Shown: positions 1,828 to 61,230 of the stretch, one piece after another
Layout of the letters: the number at the start of each line of letters is the position of its first letter
How positions within the stretch are numbered: the stretch's first letter is position 1
DNA from: Podarcis gaigeae
Taxonomy: Eukaryota
DNA length: 64,000 bases
NCBI GenBank assembly: GCA_964106915.2
Contig: OZ066922.1
Reading direction: 5' to 3' (one strand)
Translations under genes and position numbers: made by a program
The notes under the pieces: model-generated
Told to the model about the DNA's origin: nothing
What the model saw: only the letters and a program-made list of their open reading frames with translations
Database searches by the model: none

Positions 1828-4800
1828 TTAGGTATCCTGGGTTAGCGCCACCACTTGGTCTAATAAAAGGTAGAACCTAATGTCACTGTGCATCTGTCCA
1901 TGGGGCTAACATGGTATGGCTGCAACAGTCTATACTGCATCTCAATAAGTGGGCCAAGGAACATTGTATCATTGCTCCTCTCTGAACAGTTATGAGACAG
2001 CATGGGTGTGAGATGGGCCCATAACAGTTCCCACTGAAGTTACTGGAGGAGTGAGATTAGAAGCAACTACTGCAGAAGAGCCAGGGCCAACCTAAGACAG
2101 CTGGATCACACATTTCAATACTGTCTAAAAATTATTTGCCAGGTGTGGCCCTAACATTCCTCAAAATGAATCTCCCCCCCCCCCCTGTGCTCCTGGAGTC
2201 CATTGGTGTTCATCCCACTGTCTGAACCAAACAATGATAGAACACAGAAATTAAAATGATTTTGAAGTCTTATTAGAGACAACCATTAACAAGTGGCAAC
2301 AGGCACTGATGCTGGGCAGTGGGTTAACTTAAGGGGTGCAAGACAAGGCACTCCATGGTGTATTCAGCTCTGTCCTATAGTACTTTGCCACTGTGCACCA
2401 CCCCTCAGCTTCTGCTCCTGAGACACGCTAATGGCAGGGCCAGCCTTGAGCAGAGCAGGGACAATTTTGTTCAGTCAAATGCAGTTGGTGCCATAGTTAT
2501 TTTGATGACACAACGATCATTCCAAAGAGTGTCTGGGAGTCTCAGGCACAGTCTGCAGAGAATTAGAGAGATCGTGATCTCCATTTTTCTTTTGGCACCA
2601 TATTTTGACAGGGCAGATACAAGGAATGTTTTTTCTGCCGGGATAAACAATGGGAAGAGCATGTAAGTGAAGCTCCAAATCTTTCTCTTCCCAGAGACCC
2701 TAAAGACTCCCTCCACTGAGGGGACAAAAGAACAGAGAGGAAAGAGACCAGATCTCAACCATCATCTGCACTAAGCCTGACAAGGTTAGGCAGCTCTTTT
2801 GCTGACATGCTCACATGGATGGTTTCTTTGGCTTCTTGTTTTTCTTCTACAGCACCAGCCTACTCATTCTGTTTGCTCAACAGAATTTGGCTCTGAATAG
2901 CACAGCTCCAGTGAGGGGCGGGAAGGAAGAGAGAACTAAGCTAGAGACAAAAGAAGTTAAAGACTAGTTGTTCCCACCCCTTCACTCCCCCTACCTTTGT
3001 TTTACTCAAACATGGCTGTTTAACTTAAGATAATTGATTGTGTTCTTTGCTTGTTTCACTGTGGTTGCTGTTGCAGTCTCAGTATATTTTCTTTGCTGTT
3101 GTTATTGTTGTCGTTGCTTTCTTTGGCTTTTAATGTAAAATGCTGGTTTCTTCCTCCCTTTCCCCCAGCAATCCTCCAAAGAAGTTAAATATGGCATACA
3201 TATTTTTCCTGGAAACAAGTTTCATTTTCTTCTATAGTCCTGGGGTTTGACTCTTCTGGCAGTGAGGCTGCCTTTGGCCCTTAGGCAGACTTAGCATCTC
3301 TACTTTGGAATGAGGTCATGGAGCCAAAAGCTTTATGTTATTGCCGTGGCTTTCAGTGTGCACACATGTGTGCATGTGTGGAGTTTGTGCAAGTGGAAGT
3401 TTGGGGATCGTGCTTAAAAAGGGGGGCCCTCATTTACTTCCCATAACCATTTTGCCTTATGTAACTGGCAAGCTGTAAAAATATATTGGTAAAATACAAT
3501 GATACTTTGTACTTTTATTATATTGTTTGGCACTCCCTGTTCCCTGCGTGATAGGAAGTTCCAAGAACCTGTGAAGAGTCAATTACCTTTAAAGCAGCAA
3601 GAGAGTTAAATTTACTGGAGGCTTGTTGTGTTTTTGTAAGTGTTTGTTTATCTAGCAATATGCTGGTTGAGCAGATGGGAAGCAAACAGGCATACAGGCA
3701 AAAGTTTTGCAGATTGCAAAGCACAATCAGTTCCTATGATCCTAAAAAGCCAGCCTGGTCTAAGCTTGTGTTTTTTTATTCCTACTCTGGCCACACTAAA
3801 TACTGGAGTAGAGTCATCTGTGGCTTCAGGTGCCTTCTACAATGGGTTTTAAGATAACCTCCGGTCATCTTCGATCAAAATCGGCCTAATAGACCATTAA
3901 AGATATGTTTAACATCCACCATCCACTAGCAAACTTGGTATGCAAGAAGAAGCATCAGGTTGTTCAACTTTCTCACAAATCTGAGTGTTTACTTCTGTGT
4001 GTTTTAACACTTACTAACACTTAGAGCTTTATTGAGTGCCTTGACATTTTGAGTCACCTGTTCTGTATAATTGTAAAAGAAGGTTATTTAACCAGTTAAT
4101 TAAGAGGCAAGAAGAAAGATAGACAAGGCCCTTGGGTACAAGTAATGTGTTTGGAGCAGGGATTCTTAATATTGTTTCACTGTAAGAAAAACACAGTTTG
4201 GGCCTCTGAACATGTCACAGAATGAAGATGGACCACTTGATTGATAATGTCCCCAGCCCAGGGCCATGAAGATCAAAGGAGAAAAGGGGGAGATCTAGTG
4301 GAGGCCACTGCTAACTTCACTTAAAATACCCCAAGGAAGGAATCACAAAAAGCAAGAAGTCCATGACAAATAAGATATTGTCAGTGTTTGGCACTTGGCA
4401 CTGTCAATAATTTCATTGTGTATGCAGGTCCCGAAAATATATATTAAAATATGAGTTGAGAAGGATGACCAGGGCAGAGCTTGTGCTGCTTCTCTGAATC
4501 TAAATACTGTTCTTGTGTTTAATTTTGTATAAACATCTTCGTTTGGGACATCTGGAGGGCTTATATGAACTTACAAGTTTAATGTAAGATTCATGTGTTG
4601 ATGATCACTATATCTGCAATGTGAACTGATGGTGACCTACCATCAATAGTATTATTTATCATTTTTTCCCCCTTCTCTCTTTTTGTTCATTAATTTCATT
4701 TCATCTTTTTTCTTTTGCTTCCTGTTAAATTTGCAAATAAAAATTAATTTGTAAAAATTCAAAGTTTTGTTTTGCCCTTATGGCCAAACAAATAAAAAAT

Positions 4801-6468
4801 AGTACTTAAGGTAACTATGACTGAAATATTCAGCTTTTGAGAACTTCAAGTTTTGAAGACCAGATCTAAAGCCAGTTCTCCATACATCATCATAGTCACA
4901 TGCACATCAATAATAATAATAAAAGAAATAGAAATAAAAGGAATAAAATAATTACTTGACCTCAGTATGGGCATGTTTTAAGTTGGGAGAGGATTTAAAG
5001 TGCAATCCTAGCCATGTTTTCTCTAAGTCCCACAGAGCTTCTTGGGGCTTGCTCCTAAGTGATTGGGCATAGGACTATCATCTTAGAGTATAATTGTTGG
5101 AGGCAGAGAAATATGAAGTTAGTTCTACCACTTGATTCAAAGTTCTGAAAGGCTGAAACTGGTAAGGGAGAAGTGCAAGTGGATGAACGCTCTTGTGTTC
5201 CTTCATCCATTTCCCATTTAGTATTTTACTATCTCATCGGACAATAATAAAAGTGTGTCTACCTTTCCCACAGTTTGGGGCACATTGGGGAACCAAAATG
5301 GCTTTGGATCTAAACTGCTTCCTGGCTCAACCCTGGCATGTCCCCAGCATGCCCACTGCTTAAAGCACTGGAGGAGTCCTTGGCAATGGAAAGGGAGGCT
5401 CTGACATTGGCTCTCTCTATCCAGTGTCATTGGGGCAAATATAGTCCTATGGTCCTGGAATGCCCTCCCACACACCATAGGATTGCACCTTAAGTCATAA
5501 TCATAGCAAGGAAGCCATGAAGCACAGTTTTTCATCCGCAGAGTTGAATGGAAGTTACCAGCCATGTTCAGTGGTCTACCTGGTGCTCATAACTTTTGTT
5601 TCTTGCAGTCTGAAAGCTGGCAATAATAAAGATTTGTACTCACAAAAACTTGGCCACCCAGTGATCTTCATAACCTCAGGAGGGATTTGAATCTAGGTTT
5701 CCCCAGTCCTAGTCAAACACCCTTGGCTTGACTTATACAGACCTTGTTTGAGCATTGTATCACAATGAATGAGGAGTCAATTTTCCAGGCCTCATTGTAG
5801 TAGATTTCAGAAGCTCTGAGTCCGGCTTTATTTGGGAGGCTGTGCAGAGCGCTCAGAAAGCTCTTCCACCATTTGCATGCTCAATCCACTCTGACAATTT
5901 GGTTGTGCATATCAGCCCAACCTATGGCCACTAAGAGGGAAGTTCTAAGCTGCTTTTCTTCTGGCAGCAAAAAGGAACCACCACATTTCCCTGATTTCTG
6001 ACATGGAGAAAATTTCTAAACCGGCCTTGGCAGGCAGAGTTCAGCAGTTTGTACTATTTGAGTAGGGCTTACAAGTTGAATAGACATATCTCTTGAATGA
6101 CACCAAGAACACAACTGACAGAATGGCTTCTACCATAGGTGCCAATTCCCTGGGGCCCTGAGCACCCACAAAATTCCCCATGAAGGGGCCAGGCACCCAC
6201 AAATTTCAGTACCAGGACCATGCATGCTGCATAGCATCCACAATCCAGGGCACCCATGGCCGCCAGGCCAAGTTGGCACTCCTGGCTTCTATAAAGGGGA
6301 AACTGAATTACCCTGACAAGCAGCAGGGCTCAGCTGATCATTCATGTGTTGGGGAGGAGAGAGAGAAATGATGTGCATCTGTGTGCCTGTTCATTACTAC
6401 TGAACGATGTGCTGCTGAGTGGCCTGTTGGGGAGAGAACATTTTGACTAGTTTCTGATAGTCCCTATA

Positions 6469-8930
6469 AAGTAAAGGTAAAGGGACCCCTGACCATTAGG
6501 TACAGTCATAGCCAACTCTGGGGTTGCGGCGCTCATCTCGCTTTACTGGCCGAGGGAGCCGGCGTACACCTTTGGGGTCATGTGGCCAGCATGACTAAGC
6601 CGCTTCTGGCGAACCAGAGCAGTGCTCAGAAATGCCGTTTACCTTCCCGCCAGAGCGGTACCTACTTATCTACTTGCACTTTGATGTGCTTTCGAACTGC
6701 TAGGTTGGCAGGAGCTGGGACAGAGCAACAGGAGCTCACTCCGTCGCAAGGATTCAAACCGCTGACCTTCTGATCGGCAACTCCTAGGCTCTGTGGTTTA
6801 TTTTTTTTTTAATAAAATTTTTATTAGGGTTTTTTACAGAATAAAGTACAAAGACAATAAACAACCTTACTTTTATCTCAACAAAGTTTCATAACTTCTT
6901 TGGACTTCCTCGCATCTCCCACTGCCATTTTCATCATCATAAATTTTTCCAAGCAATTTATCATCTAGTTTGCAAATTTTATAACTGCTTATTTAAATAT
7001 AGTCCTCTGAAAATTTGTTTCTCTTAGCCTCGCTTTACATCCCATTCCAATCCGTTTTTGTGATGGCCAATTATTTATGATCAAACATCCTACTTAACTT
7101 TCCACCAAATCACAATATTTTTGTAAATAAGTCTTAAATTTCCTCCAATCTTCTTCAACCCTCTCTTCTCCCAGGTCTCGAATTCTGCCAGTCATCTCTG
7201 CCAGTTGCATATAGTCCATCAGCTGCATCTGCCATTCTTCCAGCGTGGGTAGATCTTGAGTTTTCCACTTCTTAGCGATAAGTATCCTTGCTGCTGCTGT
7301 TGCGTACAAAAAGAATGTTCGATCCTTCTTTGGCACCATCTGGCCGACAATGCCCAAGAGGAAGGCCTCTGGTTTCTTAAGGAAGGTATACTTAAATACC
7401 TTTTTCAGCTCATTATATATCATTTCCCAGAAGGCCTTCACCCTGGGACAAGTCCACCAGAGGTGAAAGAATGTTCCTTCATTTTCCTTACATTTCCAAC
7501 ATTTATTGTCTGGCACATGGCATATTTTGGCAAGGGACACGACAAGGCTGCCCGATTTCCCCCTTGCTGTTTATTTCTGTCCTGGAGGTGCTCTTGAACT
7601 TGATTAGAGGGGACCGGTTGGTGCAAGGGATTCAGATCGGAGCGAAACAATATAAGCTTAAAGCTTTCGCAGATGACCTTGTCTTGACATTGCAAGAGCC
7701 AGAATCTAGCACAAAAAGAGTGTTACAATTGATTCAGGACTTTGGTCGGGTGGCGGGTTTCAAACTAAATAAACAGAAAACTAAGGTGTTGGGAAAAAAC
7801 TTGACAGATACAGAGTTGGAACGGTTTCAGAGAGAAACAGAATTAAATTTGGTAAAAAGGGTGAAGTACCTAGGGGTAAATATAACAGCAAAAAATTTAT
7901 GTCTCTTTAAGGATAACTATGATAAATGTTGGTCTGAAATTAAGAGAGACTTGGACAGCTGGACAAATTTGAAGCTCTCTTTGTTAGGCCGAATTGCTGC
8001 TATCAAGATGAATGTATTGCCAAAGATGTTGTTTTTGTTTCAAACATTGCAGATTGTAGACAAAACGGAGTGTTTCCGGAAGTGGCAGAGAGATATTTCT
8101 AAATTTGTCTGGCAGGGCAAAAAGCCCAGAATTAAGTTCAAGATACTAACTGACGCGAAAGAAAGAGGGGGCTTTGCCCTGCCAGACTTAAGGTTGTACT
8201 ATGAAGCCGCAGCTTTCTGCTGGCTAAAAGACTGGCTACTTCTAGAAGACACTGATGTCTTAGATTTAGAAGGTTTTAACAATGCATTTGGTTGGCATGC
8301 ATATTTATGGTATGATAAAGTTAAGATCAATAAGGCCTTTAAGAATCATATTGTCAGGAAAGCAGTGTTTAATGTCTGGACAAAATACAAAGACCTATTG
8401 GAAAATAAAACTCCAAGATGGCTATCACCTCTGGAGGCCAAGGCCCGAAAAAGACCCAATATGGAGGCCAAATGGCCGAAATATTGGGAAATAATAGAGA
8501 AAGAGGGCAATAATTGGAAATTGCAGAGTTTGGAAAAAATGAAAGATAAAGTGCGAGACTGGTTACACTACGCTCAGATCCAAGAAATTTTTAGAAATGA
8601 TAAAAAGTTAGGATTCCAGGTGGAGAAATCGAAGTTGGAAACAGAATTGTTAGAACCTAAGACTAAAGTACTCTCAAAAATGTATAACTTGCTGTTGAAA
8701 TGGAATACACAAGATGAAATGGTTAAGTCGGCCATGATAAAGTGGGCACAGGATATTGGGCATAATATTATGTTCGAGGATTGGGAAAGGTTGTGGACCA
8801 CGGGGATGAACTTCACGGCATGTAATGCTCTGAAGGAAAATGTAATGAAAATGATATATAGGTGGTACATGACCCCAGTTAATCTTGCTAGGCTCTGTGG
8901 TTTAACCCACAGCGCCACCCGCGTCCCCCA
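6469..8930 (-). mobile_element. Sauria SINE split by the L1 insertion
   Basis: Tail gtaaaggtaaagggacccctgacc at 6470, head ccacccgcgtccc at about 8915-8927, own TSD atagtccctata at 6457-6468 and 8931-8942. Confidence 0.9.
6801..8887 (-). mobile_element. L1-clade LINE, 5'-truncated and 5'-inverted
   Basis: Minus part 6801-7534: poly-A, 3'UTR and ORF2 C-terminus with a CCHC knuckle (CWKC...HLWWTC), stop at 7094. Plus part 7530-8887: uninterrupted RT region (GTRQGCPISP, FADD, YLGVNI). TSD ctaggctctgtggttta at 6784-6800 and 8888-8904. Confidence 0.95.
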
Positions 8931-9851
8931 ATAGTCCCTATAGACTGCTACAAAAGTAAGCAAAAGCAATAATATGTGTTTGCTAGGTTTATTTCTATGT
9001 TTGCCCAGTTTTAGAATGCCCTACGTCACATTCCCCAAGTGTAACTAATTCTTGTTGCCAACACAAATGAACTCCTCCTGTCAAATTTGTGGAGCTGAGC
9101 AAGGGAACGTGAGAATGGCAACTTTCTCCCCAAATACTAATTAATTCCAGATCCTGTTGTTTTGTGGAATCACCATCTCTAGCCTAGAAAGGGCCATGCT
9201 TTCAGTGTTAACTTGTTAATTATGCTTAAGTCAGGGCCCGGCAGGAAATCTGTGGCAGAGGTGAAGTTTAGGCCAGAGAGTTAAATGTTCTGCAAATGCA
9301 TCAGATGGAAAGATGTGGGCCAGCACACAGCACATGTCTAGCAATAACAGCCAAATAATGTCCCCCAAGGTAAACAGAGAGGTATTGGATACGAAAGCCC
9401 TCCAGGTGGTTTTGCGCATGGGGCATTAAATCCTAATGACCTGAGATGGATTGTTAGTCAACTACAGGATTATTAATATCCTTTGTGCTGCAAGGATTTC
9501 CAAATGTCACTGCGCAAACATCTGTTAGACGATGGAGGGCAGGGGGAGGGAGGAGAGACTTCCTCTGCAGACTGCGCTGCTGGCTATATAATATTGCACA
9601 ATGTGGGCTGGGTTTAGCTGTTGTTGAAATAGTTTGGTTTGCTATGGCGCTGGTTTCCAGCAACGTCAAAAAGGCTTGTCTGCAATTTCATTAAACACAC
9701 ACGCACACACACACACACACACATGCAGCAGTACTTCCATCCCCACCACAGCAGCATCCCATTGCCTTAGTAGCGTGCAAGAGTTAATAATAAGAAAAAT
9801 GATGCAGAGTGTAAGTCACAGAGCAGTACAGTTCCCCAGTGGCCTTTAGCA

Positions 9852-16164: not shown

Positions 16165-16730
16165 TTACAGGTAGGTAGCCGTGTTGGTCTGCCGTAGTCG
16201 AAACAAAATTTAAAAAATTCCTTCCAGTAGCACCTTAGAGACCAACTAAGTTAGTTATTGGTATGTGCTTTCATGTGCATGCACACTTCTTCAGATATGA
16301 AGATACGAACTTAGTTGGTCTCTAAGGTGCTACTAAGGGACACGGGTGGCGCTGTGGGTTAAACCACAGAGCCTAGGACTTGCCGATCAGAAGGTCGGCA
16401 GTTCGAATCCCCGCAACGGGGTGAGCAACCGTTGCTCGGTCCCTGCTCCTGCCAACCTAGCAGTTCGAAAGCACGTCAAAGTGCAAGTAGATAAATAGGT
16501 ACCCCTCCGGCGGGAAGGTAAACGGTGTTTCCGTGCGCTACTCCGGTTCGCCAGAAGTGGCTTAGTCATGCTGGCCACATGACCAAGAAGCTGTACGCCA
16601 GCTCCCTCAGGCAATAAAGCGAGATGAGCACCGCAACCCCAGAGTCGGCCACGACTGGACCTAATGGTCAGGGGTCCCTTTACCTTTACCTTTACCTTAA
16701 GGTGCTACTGGAAGGATTTTATTTTTTTTA
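16165..16730. mobile_element. Penelope-like terminal fragment with inverted arm, interrupted by a Sauria SINE
   Basis: ggtagccgtgttggtctg...gcaccttagagaccaactaag, then its reverse complement cttagttggtctctaaggtgctac. Mutated hammerhead core. Flanking duplication atc(g/c)aacaag. Confidence 0.75.
16337..16697 (+). mobile_element. Sauria SINE, full length
   Basis: gggacacgggtggcgctgtgggttaaacc head, (ACCTTT)n tail, TSD taaggtgctact at 16323-16334 and 16698-16709. Confidence 0.92.
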
Positions 16731-31282: not shown

Positions 31283-31633
31283 AAAGGTAAAGGGACCCCT
31301 GACCATTAAGTCCAGTCGCGGACGACTCTGAGATTGCGGCGCTCATCTCGCTTTACTGGCCGAGGGAGCCAGCGTACAGCTTCCTGGTCATGAGGCCAGC
31401 ATGACTAAGCCGCTTCTGGCAAACCAGAGCAGAGCACGGAAACACCATTTACCTTCCCGCTGGAGCGGTACCTATTTATCTACTTGTACTTTGACGTGCT
31501 TTTGAATTGCTAGGTTGGCAGGAGCAGGGACCAAGCAATGGGAGCTCACCCCGTCGCGGGGATTCGAACTGCTGATCTTCCGATCTGCAAGCCCTAAGCT
31601 CTGTGGTTTAGACCACAGCGCCACCCACATCCC
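31283..31633 (-). mobile_element. Sauria SINE
   Basis: Full-length reverse copy highly similar to 16337-16697. Confidence 0.92.
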
Positions 31634-39210: not shown

Positions 39211-39487
39211 CAGCTCCTTCAGGTTGGGGGCTCACACAGGTGCAACCCACAGAGGGGTCTCCTCTCCCCGCTTAACTCTTTCGGCACCAACCGGTGCGAA
39301 CACGATCCGGAGCCACTCCGGAAACGAAGGGCTGCAGAAGGATCGCCTTTGGACTCCGCCTTACCTGGAGAGCCGACCTCTTAGTGGACCTGTCCCAGCT
39401 TTCCTTTCAACCACCCCGCTGCCCCCTGGACCCCCAACCCCACCTCCCTGTCCCCCAAAGGCGGGGCGAGGCGGAGGAAGCTCCTAC

Positions 39488-40022
39488 CCATGCCGAGGCA
39501 GTGGAATCGCCGGGGGTCGCTCATGCTGTAGGCGGCCGCTGCGCAGACAGGTGGGTGGCCCAGGGCGTGCGCTGCCGCCACTGCCGCCGCCGCCGCGGAG
39601 GCCACCGAGCCGGCTTGCTGCTGCTGCTGCTGCTGCGGGGCTGGCTGCTGCTGGGCATGGCTCAGGCGGGGGCAATACTGGCCCTCGCCGGCCGCAGCGG
39701 GAGGGAAGTGGCCCTTGAGGAGCGGGATGGCGGCAGCGGCGCCCGCTCCTCCTCCTCCTCCTCCTCCGGCTCCTCCTGCCGCGCCCGCCCGGGAAGAGGC
39801 GTGCAGGTGCGAGCTGACACACAGTGGGCACACGCAGAAAGCGCCGCTCTTGCGCGACGGGCACGCCGGCCCGCCCGCCACCGACATGACCAGCGGCGAC
39901 GGCACGCCCAGCGGGATGAGGAAGTCCTGCCCGGGGGGCGGGTGGTGGTGATCCGGCAACGAGGGAGCCGGCCGAGCCGGGTCCTTGATGATGAGCGAAT
40001 CCACATAGAACGAGCGAGACAT
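39488..40022 (-). CDS. GSX2: GSX2 (GS homeobox 2) coding exon 1
   Basis: ATG at 40022 gives MSRSFYVDSLIIKD (Gsx N-terminal repressor motif), then SRKSGAFCVCPLCV and DPRRFHCLGM. The exon ends at a phase-1 donor ATG G|GTAGGA (intron starts 39487); 535 nt. Confidence 0.97.
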
Positions 40023-40289
40023 GGTTGAGGATCGGAGGCGCGCAGGCTGGCTGGCTGGCAGTGCCTCCCGGTGGCGCTCTCTGGCTCTGTGCGCTCTCAC
40101 CGTGCGCTCTGCGGAGCCGGTCCTCCTGGGGCCGAGTCGCCTCTGCAAAAGCCCCTGGGCGAGCCCGGAAGGTGCTTAAGTCTGAGAGCTGAACAAAGGG
40201 GGGCTCTGGAGAGGGCTGGTCTTATAAAAAAAAAACCACACCATCAACCAACCCCCCTTTCCTTCTCTCTAGACCTCCCCTGGATCTCT

Positions 40290-49652: not shown

Positions 49653-49826
49653 NNNNNNNNNNNNNNNNNNNNNNNNNNNNNNNNNNNNNNNNNNNNNNNN
49701 NNNNNNNNNNNNNNNNNNNNNNNNNNNNNNNNNNNNNNNNNNNNNNNNNNNNNNNNNNNNNNNNNNNNNNNNNNNNNNNNNNNNNNNNNNNNNNNNNNNN
49801 NNNNNNNNNNNNNNNNNNNNNNNNNN
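49653..49826. other. Assembly gap (N run)
   Basis: 174 consecutive N. Confidence 1.
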
Positions 49827-51580: not shown

Positions 51581-52426
51581 ATGGAGGAAGAAGGGGGGCA
51601 CAGGTTCCCCACCCCCATCCACTTATCCCCTGGGGAAAATAGCTACAAAAATGGAACTGGAGAACTGTGCCCAAACTAACAAATTGAATAGGGACAAATG
51701 TAAGGTTCTGCAGAACCAGCTGCACAAATATAAGACGGTGGGGCACCTGGCTTACTAGTAGTACATGTGGAAAGGATCTAGGGGTCTGTGTGGATCACAA
51801 ACTTAATGAGTTAACTGTGTGATACAGCAGCAAAAACAAAAAAAAGGAAATGCCAGTCTAGGTAGTGCAAGAATGCCATTTTGCGCAAGCGCACAGGGAG
51901 GGGAGAGGGAAGACAAGCCAGTGGTGTTCTGCTGTGTGCATGCCTACTCAATTTATTTATTTGCAGTTTAGAATGCACCAGCAGCCATGGGCATAGCCAA
52001 GGGGGACCAGCAGTGGCGTAGCTAGCCAGGGGGCAGGGCAAGCTGTCCATGGGGCACGGCGAACCAGGCAGGGCACGCTGAGCGGAGCCAAAGCCTGCTT
52101 GGCATCTGCTCTGCCTGCATCAGCTGCTGGGCAGCTGAGGGGGAGGCGGTGGGTGGACGCAAGCCCCAGGCCTCCTTTTCGGGTGGTGCGGTCCCTGCAG
52201 GCACCTGAGCTACTGTGTCACTCCGAGGAGAGATCCGTGGCTCGGGAGCACTACAGGCCCCCCAGGGTAAGTGCCACCCATATTGTGAGTGGCCTCCCAG
52301 TGCCCCCCCCTGCAGCCCCCTAGCTATGCTAGTGAGGGGCAGGGGGTGGCTACTTCCCAAATCAATAAAAATCAATACAGAGGTACCTCAGGTTAAGAAC
52401 TTAATTCGTTCTGGAGGTCCATTCTT

Positions 52427-53284
52427 TTCCCCCCTGGGTTTTTTTTTATTTTAGACAGCCTACATGACAAGTTTTTAAAAACCAATGCCTCCACTCCAAT
52501 TAATTCAGGGTCAAAATAAATCAAATTATGCTCAAGATGGCATCAGTCCAGTTTTCAAACAATGCTGAGTCATGATGTTTTGTTGATGAATAAAGAACAG
52601 CAGCCAATTATGATGATAGATGATCCAGAAGGGTTGGTCTCTTGTTAACATTTCTCCATTTCTAATCCATCCTTAAAGAAAATCATATAAGGATTGATAC
52701 CATCCTCATGGAAATCCAGCAACGCCACCATTCCATCTGGATTCATGTTCTCGCCTACAAAAAACTGGCAATTTTTTAAGTTTGCAAGGATATGTTTGAC
52801 TTGTTCAGCTGCTCCGGTCATAAATGGTTTTACTCTCTCTGGCTTTGTTTCCTCAAGTCTTGCTTCGATTGCTTTCATGTAGTCCTTGATGTACTTCTTG
52901 TAGGACTCTTTAGTGAAGCTTGTTTCCTGAAGGTGGTGGTTCATTACAATGTCAACACCAGTGACAACAGTAGCCTCTGCCCCTTCACCATCTGGACCTT
53001 CAGCCAACGCATTTCCACCAATTAAAGCATCATCTATTTCACCTTCTTTCCTGCTCACCATCTTCCCTTCCACTTCCAGGCAGAGTCCGCTGGCCACTTC
53101 TTTGACCTTGTAGATGTCCGAGAACATCTCGTCTTGGCTGATGCAGTCCCGGTAGATGATCATGGCTGAGGCATCGTCGGGTGGTGGTGGGTCTAGCGGG
53201 CGGGCGGGCAGGCAGGAGGCCTCAGGGAGCGGAGCGGCTGGGCAGCGACTCCTGGCGAGAGCAAGGAACGAGGCGGAGAAAAAG
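52427..53284 (-). pseudogene. TPT1: TPT1 (TCTP) processed retrocopy; full-length ORF 52645-53163 (172 aa) with 5'UTR and 3'UTR
   Basis: Intronless [19 protein letters not shown]...[11 protein letters not shown]. The 5' end is a pyrimidine tract (CTTTTTCTCC, TOP-like); AATAAA/A-run at about 52439-52452; 16-bp TSD ctggaggtccattctt at 52411-52426 and 53285-53300. Substitutions at conserved sites (GNASAEG>GNALAEG, NYQF>NCQF, FREDG>FHEDG). Confidence 0.93.
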
Positions 53285-53469
53285 CTGGAGGTCCATTCTT
53301 AACCTGAAACTGTTCTTAACATGAGGTACCACTTTAGCTAATGGGGCCTCCCGCTGCTGCTGCACCGCTGCCGCACGATTTCTGTTCTCATCCTGAAGCA
53401 AAGTTCTTAACCCGAGGTACTATTTCTGGGTTAGCGGAGTCTGTAAGCTGAAGCATCTGTAACCCAAGG

Positions 53470-53833
53470 TAAGGTAAAGGTAAAGGTACCCTTGCCCGTA
53501 CGGGCCAGTCTTGCCAGACTCTGGGGTTGTGCGCCCATCTCACTCAAGAGGCCAGGGGCCAGCGCTGTCCGGAGACACTTCCGGGTCACGTGGCCAGCGT
53601 GACATCGCTGCTCTGGCGAGCCAGAGCTGCACACGGAAACGCCGTTTACCTTCCCGCTAGAAAGCGGTCCCTATTTATCTACTTGCACCCGAGGGTGCTT
53701 TCGAACTGCTAGGTTGGCAGGCGCTGGGACCGAGCAACGGGAGCGCACCCCGCCGCGGGGATTCGAACCGCCGACCTTTCGATCGGCAAGCCCTAGGCGC
53801 TGAGGCATTTACCCACAGCGCCACCCGCGTCCC
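53470..53833 (-). mobile_element. Sauria SINE (CpG-rich, young subfamily)
   Basis: (aaggta)n tail and ccacccgcgtccc head, inserted in the right arm of the mariner MITE. Confidence 0.92.
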
Positions 53834-54970
53834 CGAGGTACCACTGTACAAATCTGAGGTTCTGCCCCCTCTGACAAAAGCCTGCCCTCCTTAACAAAAA
53901 TCCTGGCTACTCCCAAGTCAGCAGCTGCATCCACCCACCCATGGGGACAGAGCTTGCTCTTCCATGAGGCAATGGGAGCCAGAGAGATAAGGTGTGCTGT
54001 TTGGTGAGACATTTTGTGGCAGCAGATTGCCTTTCCTGCAAGGGAAGTAAGCTAGGACCCTGATCCAGATCTGCTGCCCCTCCCATTCTGCCACTGATGC
54101 ACCCTCCTCCTCTTGGCTCATTATAGCGCTGGCCCTGTTGACTTGGTAGCTCCAGGAATTAATGCCCCATTAAGAAAGGGAGTGGTTCCAATTACCTTCC
54201 GAAGCTAGTAGTGGTGCAGTTGCTCCTTAAAATGGCTGCCATGGACCCACACCATCTCATATATACTTAAGGGAGTGGTGGCTGTCCAATTCTGGACTCA
54301 CTTGGATGAGACAGATGATGTAAAAACAAATCATTGTGGTTATGGCAGAGATACAACCTCATGGGTGACCTACATTGGAGGAGGGCAGGGGAGTGTGACC
54401 CGGTCAATTCCCATTGGCTGTGGTATCTTTCTGGGCTCACTCTGTCAGCTGGGAGAACAGTCATATTGTGGTTTCCCTCACAGGGCTCTTTTCAGAAGGT
54501 GGTGCTAGGGGGCTTCTATTTGCCCCCTTGCTGAGGTATTGAAAAGTTCCATCTTGTCCCTTACATGCAAACACATCCTGTCAAGCGCCACCTCCTTGTG
54601 TGGATGGGAAACACTGAGACAGGGTTCAGCTGAAAGCACTTGTGTGAATGCACATGGAAAAATGAGATCTGCACAACTCATGTACACGTTAGCGTGTGCA
54701 CAGCTGTTTGAATGTGCACCTCCCATGTTCCTATTTAAAGGGGAACATTCCCGCCAAATTGCAATGTCTTCACAATGGGTGGGTGTGGTTTTATTGAGTG
54801 ATTGTAATTTTGATTTAGATAAGCTACCTTGAACGATACAAAAGCATAAAAGGTAGGGTGATTCCACCCCACCCCCTGAAAATAAGTAAGGATGGAGAAA
54901 TTGTTTGTGTCCAATTGTGCCAGACTTCAGCTTGAGCAATAATTTAAAATGCCTTTGGGTATGTGTAGAA

Positions 54971-60279: not shown

Positions 60280-61230
60280 GACCAATGAGAAGTTCCAACG
60301 AGTCCCCTGGGCCTCCTTTCCCCCTAGCACCCAAGGCTTCGCAGCCGACGCCGACCACACAAAGAAGCCGACCGATCCGGCTTCAGGCGACGCCTCTTCC
60401 CCTCCCAAGATGGCACCCGGGAGGCCGACTTCCTCCTTCCAGCCAGCAGCTACCAGCCGCGCGGCCGCCGTTGGCCGCACCTCTATTCAAACAGCAGCGC
60501 GAGCGCGGCGCGTGCGCTTCGGGGGCCTCCGCGGCGGCCTCGTTTTCTCAGGCCGGCGTGCGTGCGCCCGCTCCCTCGCTCTCGCGCGTGCGTGCGTGCG
60601 CCGCGCGGCGAGGAAAGGGGCGGGGCTTGGCGCCCTCGGCTTCCCAGTCAGTGGCTGCCGCGGCGCCGGAGAGCGGATGTTGTTATTGTTGTTGTTCCTG
60701 TCCGTCTCTCTCTTCCCCCTCCCCGGGACCATGACGGGCGCTTCCTCCCGGCGGCCCTGAGAGGGAAAAGCTTCGGTGGCCGCTTCGCTCGGAGCTTCGG
60801 AGGAGGCGGCGGCGGCCCAAGAAGCGGCGGCTGCTGCTGCTGCTCTTGTCTCTCTCTCTCTCCTCTCGTTCCCGGCTTCTTCTTCTTCTGCTTCTTCCTC
60901 TTCCTCGCGGCCCGGCCTGGCCCGGCCATGGCGGACTTCGACGAGATCTACGAAGAAGAGGAGGACGAGGAGCGGGCCTTGGAGGAGCAGCTGCTCAAGC
61001 ACTCGCCGGACCCGGTGGTGGTGCGCGGCTCCGGCCATGTCACTGTGTAAGGAAGGGAGGAAGCAGGGAGACGTGGGAGCGAGGTGGGCCAAGAGGGATG
61101 GAGGGCGGCGAAAAGAGGAAACGAGGAGCTGCTTCTGCAGGGCCTTACTGGCACCTTCCTGTCGAGGCACCTCTGACCTTCCGCGGGGGATTTCTGCAGT
61201 CCAGTTTCGTTGCAACCCTTCCGCCTCCAA
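60280..61230 (+). promoter_or_regulatory. CHIC2: CHIC2 CpG-island promoter/5'UTR
   Basis: CpG-dense; CCAAT at about 60281, YY1-like AAGATGGC at about 60407, GCGCGTGCG NRF1-like runs, GC box GGGGCGGGGC at about 60617. Confidence 0.8.
60928..61046 (+). CDS. CHIC2: CHIC2 (cysteine-rich hydrophobic domain 2) coding exon 1; the gene continues beyond the window
   Basis: GCCATGG Kozak; MADFDEIYEEEEDEERALEEQLLKHSPDPVVVRGSGHVTV matches the vertebrate CHIC2 N-terminus. 119-nt coding exon ending at donor GT|GTAAGG. Divergent to GSX2 as in human 4q12. Exon 2 (FGLSNKF...) was not seen before 64000. Confidence 0.96.

Follow-up and report, generated by a model that had tools for sequence, protein, structure and literature searches.

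One young L1 insertion, its front inverted by the twin priming of a single RNA, best explains a 2,087-bp element (6801-8887, minus strand) found inside a Sauria-type SINE in the window, a 64,000-nt stretch of Podarcis gaigeae DNA (C19:26412001-26476000 of the searched assembly); we put the probability of this reading at roughly 90%. The element is bounded by perfect 17-bp target site duplications (TSDs). The mechanism is deduced from end products, while the anatomy of the copy, the single source lineage of its two pieces, the recurrence of the arrangement in the family and an excess of microhomology at the priming junctions were observed directly. Chance does not explain the combination of exact 17-bp repeats at the outer ends of the pieces, breakpoints that are contiguous and another six cases in the family.

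Anatomy of the window copy

The positions of the parts of the insertion and of its host SINE are collected in Table 1. As the first-pass annotation had claimed, a single ORF2 is broken into two pieces of opposite orientation (7535-8887 on the plus strand, 7534-7094 on the minus strand), and the two 17-bp TSDs are identical. In the sense piece, ORF2 ends at a stop codon at 7096-7094 (minus strand) and is followed by the 3′-UTR and the poly(A) tail. The minus strand ORF contains a CX2CX8HX4C motif, the form given for the C-terminal motif of non-mammalian L1s (PMC5381506). The inverted piece corresponds to the C-terminal part of the reverse transcriptase (RT) domain plus downstream ORF2 sequence. 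It had been described as about 1.35 kb of stop-free RT sequence: no stop is present, but the RVT_1 match (E=4e-15) covers only its first 117 residues (1-117).

Table 1. Features of the L1 insertion and of its host SINE (window positions; L152 is the full-length reference copy)
Feature	Position	Strand	Remarks
Host SINE own TSD, left copy, 12 bp	6457-6468	.	
Host Sauria-type SINE, 3′ part	6469-6800	-	(ACCTTT)n-like tail at 6485-6469
L1 TSD copy at the element 3′ (poly-A) end, 17 bp	6784-6800	.	100% identical to 8888-8904
Poly(A) tail, 10 nt	6801-6810	-	T10 on the plus strand
Non-inverted L1 3′ part, 734 bp	6801-7534	-	Reference 5351-6084; 100% to L152
Inner-junction microhomology AAG, 3 nt	7532-7534	.	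Common to both pieces
Inverted L1 5′ part, 1,353 bp	7535-8887	+	Reference about 4002-5354; stop-free; 99.8% to L152
Substitution T	8883	+	All 29 nearest copies have A; priming junction 5 nt away
CTTG, 4 nt present in both pieces	8884-8887	+	Second site 7534-7531, minus strand
L1 TSD copy adjoining the inverted piece, 17 bp	8888-8904	.	100% identical to 6784-6800
Host SINE 5′ head	8905-8930	-	
Host SINE own TSD, right copy, 12 bp	8931-8942	.	Starts TA on the SINE strand

Aligned to L152, an intact copy of 6,084 bp, the insertion reads from 5355 to 3999 in inverted orientation (99.8%) and then 5351-6084 (100%). The pieces are contiguous on these coordinates, as initially proposed, with an overlap of 4 nt (CTTG); the longer duplication first put forward (cttgc) is reached only by including the C that also belongs to the TSD. 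The proposed gcaag microhomology at the inner junction (7530-7534) proved wrong, since the same five bases had been counted both as duplication and as microhomology. The 3 nt AAG are shared instead, and all 29 colinear copies among the nearest relatives read GAAAAAG directly upstream of the end of the inverted piece. At the outer (priming) junction the TSD end and the L1 RNA have 1 nt of microhomology, the C at 8888, which would represent the second primer end. The inverted piece does end in 'PVNLA' against the TSD, with the qualification that its N depends on the T at 8883 (29/29 nearest copies encode K) and that part of the final Ala codon belongs to the TSD. This T may reflect either an RT error close to the point of priming or mutation at a later time. 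No inverted repeat was found at the breakpoints of the window copy.

The two copies most similar to each piece were the same, L152 and L153 (99.7-100% identity; 118 copies compared), and the similarity ranks of the two pieces were correlated (Spearman 0.74 over the 118 copies). Because these two copies are the nearest for both pieces, a single source lineage is supported; an origin of the pieces in different L1 subfamilies, named at the outset as a finding that would speak against one insertion, was not seen. The window copy differs from its two nearest relatives at 3 and 4 positions over the 2,087 bp (∼0.15% from the nearest). With so few differences it is probably very young, in agreement with the earlier view of a recent insertion. 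Without promoter, ORF1 or endonuclease the window copy is dead. By itself it is an ordinary insertion; what gives the finding value is how often the family inverts, how long the inverted arms are and how its target register is shifted.

The L1 landed 26-43 nt from the start of the host SINE. The window and the fetched loci together yielded 46 near-full relatives of this SINE (median identity 82%, maximum 91%), and the commonest form across the insertion site (15 copies) contains the TSD sequence once only. We take the SINE to be a putative member of the Sauria family, a name based on its tail, its T-starting TSD and its resemblance to that family. An (ACCTTT)n-like 3′ tail and a TSD beginning with T and then A, as seen here, are given for Sauria SINEs (PMC13295347). 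Three further SINEs of the host family are present in the window (16337-16689, 31283-31633 and 53474-53834; 79-89% identical).

The L1 family

Exact matches to one 24-mer near the 3′ end indicated that the family has at least 535 copies. The full-length copy L152 (6,084 bp) encodes an ORF1 of 344 aa and an ORF2 of 1,246 aa. Its ORF2 contains Exo_endo_phos (E=4e-13) and RVT_1 (E=1e-36) domains and matched human ORF2p (8sxt) with E=4e-175 over residues 4-1213, compared with E=5e-21 for R2 proteins. ORF1 matched no Pfam family at the cut-off, showing weak coiled-coil matches and a weak match to human ORF1p (E=0.07 over 125-290); its named relatives are from Podarcis (42-53% identity), and one of them, at 47%, carries the UniRef name 'L1 transposable element RRM domain...'. 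The dispersed insertions and the ORF2p match favour an assignment to L1 over Tx1, as far as sequence comparison can tell. Non-mammalian vertebrate L1s (lizard, frog and zebrafish) likewise have two ORFs, an endonuclease plus RT, and an A tail (PMC5381506).

Nearly half of the assessed copies were full length (126/273, 46%), and 276 5′ anchors were found genome-wide. Both ORFs were open in 44 of the 52 copies checked. The family may thus include many potentially active copies for a non-mammalian L1; in fish and anole, full-length copies are reported to be few (PMC5381506), in contrast to the 126/273 seen here. Extra G's were noted at many 5′ ends of family copies. Two copies lying 13 kb apart on C31 (L008 and L009) have identical 3′ flanks and mismatch counts, and represent either a local duplication or an assembly duplicate.

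Inversions recur in the family at a low rate

Besides the window copy, six of the 273 assessed copies were inverted (L080, L087, L099, L183, L192 and L201), a rate of 2.2% (95% CI 0.8-4.7%) that applies to copies longer than about 200-300 bp, since the anchors used miss shorter ones. The remaining copies were full length (126), truncated (136) or 5′-complete with an internal deletion (5). Two samples were combined. The first comprised the first 100 listed places of the 24-mer (C1, C2 and the start of C3), all of which were fetched; three were inverted. The second comprised 184 further 3′ anchors paired with 5′ anchors, of which 73 had a same-strand partner at 5.50-5.62 kb and were called full length on that ground, 100 were fetched and 11 remained unfetched; three of these copies were inverted, one of them (L201) having been fetched on account of its opposite-strand partner. 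None of the 11 unfetched anchors had an opposite-strand partner, and five of the 11 were colinear over 2,087 bp; counting all 11 as negative gives 6/284 (2.1%). The window copy and nine loci chosen by similarity (L152-L160) were left out of the rate.

A search for short inversions through the 5′ junctions of every fetched copy (word size 7, 400 bp upstream) returned only chance matches of 13-14 nt; a 23-nt match 45 nt upstream of the full-length L136 was not counted as an inversion. Several young copies lie in or beside older L1 fragments (L002/L153, L030/L113, L169, L174 and L199; 80-89% identity). Such nests can mimic inversions and were left out; at L169, L174 and L199 the neighbouring older fragments (80-86%) were not counted.

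The six further inversions, which occupy six loci on five contigs, each have their own TSDs, and exact TSDs flank all seven (17, 14, 14, 19, 17, 17 and 17 bp; the window copy is given first here and in the series below). Breakpoints lie no more than about 25 nt apart in six of the seven. They overlap by 4 nt in the window copy, 7 nt in L080 and 16 nt in L087, and are separated by gaps of about 7 nt in L099, 10 nt in L183, 21 nt in L192 and 480 nt in L201. Within each of the other six, the two pieces follow a single lineage (rho 0.82-0.98). The inverted arms measure 1.35, 3.9, 3.7, 1.1, 3.8, 0.7 and 1.2 kb, three of the seven exceeding 3.6 kb, and in L080, L087, L099 and L201 the arm stops only a few bases short of the element's 5′ end, if at all.

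Microhomology at the priming junction amounted to 1, 0, 3, 2, 0, 2 and 2 nt. Its sum, 10, compares with 1.95 expected from random RNA positions (p=0.0014, with the small n of 7), and four of the seven cases show 2 nt or more (p=0.0003). In the two cases with no microhomology the terminal base is mismatched and the next two or three bases are matched. At the inner junction, microhomology was 3 nt (AAG) in the window copy and 1, 2 and 1 nt in L080, L087 and L201, respectively, these being the four of the seven whose inner junctions resolved cleanly. These observations, drawn from assembled sequence, support recurrent twin priming in a squamate L1, as the first-pass annotation had suggested from one copy. 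Its description of the window copy as a textbook case holds for the geometry but less so for the priming junction, where there is only 1 nt of microhomology.

Five of the 273 copies (L074, L088, L195, L211 and L231) keep the 5′ end and exact TSDs and lack 1.0-3.4 kb internally. They are about as frequent as the inversions, and their breakpoints are all different, with 0-3 nt of microhomology. Splicing was ruled out as their source, the junctions not being GT-AG, as were two-RNA chimeras, both parts tracking one lineage (least clearly in L211). They could have arisen by template skipping during insertion or by later deletion.

A probable shift of the target site in the family

An exact TSD of at least 10 bp was found in 181 of 200 fetched copies (median 17 bp). 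The family follows a pattern Y/NARA, the slash marking the start of the TSD: 114/181 TSDs (63%) begin with C, G or T, the following three bases are A (75%), a purine (84%) and A (85%), and the base before the TSD is C or T in 93% and G in 5% (A being excluded there by the method). The target site of the window copy, GT/TAAAC, fits this pattern. The mammalian L1 consensus is TT/AAAA, with a TSD starting with A (PMC13295347, Figure 1 legend), a preference that the lizard family does not follow. The nick had been placed at GTTT/AA, which would require a 16-bp TSD; the 17-bp TSD places it instead at 5′-GTTTA/AC-3′, and the family pattern favours 17 bp. The simplest reading is that the nick probably lies one base off the mammalian register, with the consequence that most first primers would end in a base unpaired with the poly(A). 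The endonuclease loop reads FFSEAQLTWTRID in the lizard L1, compared with FFSAPHHTYSKID in human. The literature search returned no prior description of such a shifted register, zebrafish L1 target papers lying outside its reach.

Twin priming and its alternatives

Under the twin-priming model (Ostertag and Kazazian 2001, as given in PMC2912911, PMC12016303 and bioRxiv 10.1101/2021.12.20.472354), ORF2p would have nicked 5′-GTTTA/AC-3′ inside the older SINE, and the nicked end would have primed cDNA on the poly(A) tail despite its mismatched last base. With the first cDNA at a length of about 730 nt, the second strand would have been cut at a distance of 17 nt. The freed 3′ end would then have formed a weak pairing (one matched terminal base) around position 5354 of the RNA, priming a second cDNA that copied 1.35 kb toward the 5′ end. 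The two cDNAs would have met at the 3-nt AAG/CTT microhomology, where microhomology-mediated end joining by the host probably linked them, and gap filling would have generated the 17-bp TSD. In the family at large, about 2% of the surviving insertions would have taken this route, the second cDNA often extending to the 5′ end of the RNA. Points against twin priming are the 1-nt priming microhomology of the window copy with its unexplained substitution 5 nt away, and the lack of a terminal match at the priming junction in two of the seven inversions.

An insertion that was originally colinear and that DNA repair or recombination inverted at a later time would leave inverted full-length copies, and four of the six other cases do keep the whole 5′ end; the five 5′-complete copies with 1.0-3.4 kb internal deletions further indicate that rearranged copies exist. 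However, one breakpoint lies at the TSD edge in all seven cases, with undamaged TSDs and no flank moved along, and the RNA sequence immediately beyond the breakpoint shows more microhomology to the TSD end than expected by chance. The window copy has no inverted repeat at its breakpoints and, at only ∼0.15% divergence from its nearest relative, would have had little time for such an event; a later inversion is very improbable. The same degree of doubt attaches to two RNAs of the family, or two separate insertions, having entered one site in opposite orientations. With hundreds of near-identical copies, pieces from sister sources would look alike, and two RNAs of one source would be indistinguishable from one; the 480-nt gap between the pieces of L201 would also fit. 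Against this, there is one TSD pair and one poly(A) tail, both pieces have the same nearest copies, and the breakpoints on the 6-kb RNA fall no more than 4 nt apart in the window copy and no more than about 25 nt apart in six of the seven cases.

That repeat fragments were joined in the wrong orientation during assembly deserves consideration, since the L1 and the SINE around it are both high-copy and the junction is known from the assembly alone. Nevertheless, there is no reason why an assembler should generate an exact TSD pair together with a 4-nt overlap and a 3-nt microhomology, the same anatomy appears with its own TSDs at six other loci on five contigs, and the N stretch of the window (49653-49826) is far away; an artefact is scarcely credible. 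Contigs from four of 24 public runs (at most three samples) were inspected over 6000-9600 and 7490-7580, and none of the pieces listed (5/5 for X1, 8/11 for X16, 8/43 for X15 and none for X2) bridged the inner junction. The unique-flank contigs break inside the SINE and come from other haplotypes, since each differs from the window at one or more sites. This result is neutral, speaking neither for nor against the inner junction. Twin priming of a single RNA remains the preferred reading.

Comparison with other LINEs

Inverted copies make up 639/2,068 (30.9%) of human and chimpanzee L1s (PMC2912911), 330/1,271 (26%) of human polymorphic L1s, with a median arm of 666 bp and 88% of arms below 1.5 kb (bioRxiv 10.1101/2021.12.20.472354), and 165/897 (18.4%) of human germline L1s (PMC12016303). 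The lizard rate, 6/273, is below 639/2,068 (Fisher p=8e-32), as is that of non-full-length copies (6/142 versus 639/1,733, p=3e-19), the sets having been ascertained differently in both comparisons. Inversion is thus 8-14 times rarer in the lizard than in the published human sets (18-31%), with the same difference in ascertainment; selection in the lizard may also filter copies.

In their anatomy the lizard inversions resemble the 5′-inverted L1s of human and chimpanzee, which also have a sense 3′ part with poly(A), an inverted part lying against the 5′ TSD, TSDs of 14-19 bp, short cDNA overlaps or gaps, and microhomologies of 0-3 nt at both junctions (bioRxiv 10.1101/2021.12.20.472354, PMC12016303). 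They differ in arm length, three of the seven exceeding 3.6 kb whereas 88% of the human arms are shorter than 1.5 kb (binomial p about 0.04, a modest value). Further, four of the seven arms reach the 5′ end, unlike the human set, and three of the seven junctions lie beyond position 4000, while 89% of human junctions fall at 4000-6000. The target also differs (Y/NARA versus TT/AAAA).

In a study of more than 200 inserts of three LINEs in two cell lines (chicken DT40 and HeLa), human L1 gave inversions in human cells and none in DT40, and one insert of zebrafish Nimb-2_DR was inverted (PMC4245944). The inversions came with TSDs of 10-20 bp, a range that includes the lizard family median of 17 bp; long 3′ overhangs were proposed to be required, and inversion was concluded to depend on both element and host. 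The present data indicate that inversions do arise in a sauropsid germline from the host's own L1, at a rate low enough to escape a set of that size. In the text available for each source, 'inversion' and 'inverted' do not occur in the main text of PMC5381506, twin priming appears in PMC5389967 only in the reference list, and PMC4476161 uses the term for mammalian chimeras. The literature search found no survey of inversions in reptile L1; papers on zebrafish or other non-mammalian L1s may report frequencies.

The mechanism is a known one, in a new host and now with a rate. As a squamate L1 inverts at about 2%, the process does not depend on factors restricted to mammals, and the point to be explained is why the mammalian rate is tenfold higher. 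We tentatively propose, at a little under even odds, that twin priming is ancestral and built into vertebrate L1 and that the 20-30% mammalian rate is derived, the lizard form being about ten times rarer, usually 5′-complete and coupled to a 5′-TYTN/R-3′ cut. Second-strand cutting and 5′-end joining are open questions in L1 biology; the principal genomic read-out of when these steps occur is the 5′ inversion. If the proposal is true, the many intact copies would offer a second system in which to separate element from host in the control of second-strand cleavage, truncation and inversion; because the family is young and many copies have both ORFs open, reciprocal element-and-host assays are possible.

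Other features of the window

Judging from their translations, the segment at 39381-40030 (minus strand) is presumably a GSX2-like first exon and that at about 60940-61050 (plus strand) a CHIC2-like first exon; the GSX2-like exon had no Pfam match. The L1 lies ∼30 kb from this exon, with no long ORF near it. An intronless retrocopy of TCTP (TPT1) occupies 52427-53284 (minus strand), with an open frame of 171 aa (PF00838, E=7e-71) and a short A tail. It is nested in another repeat and is flanked by perfect 16-bp TSDs (52411-52426 and 53285-53300). Its TSD start, T/AAGAA, fits the target pattern of the L1 family, and the retrocopy is likely an L1-made processed pseudogene.
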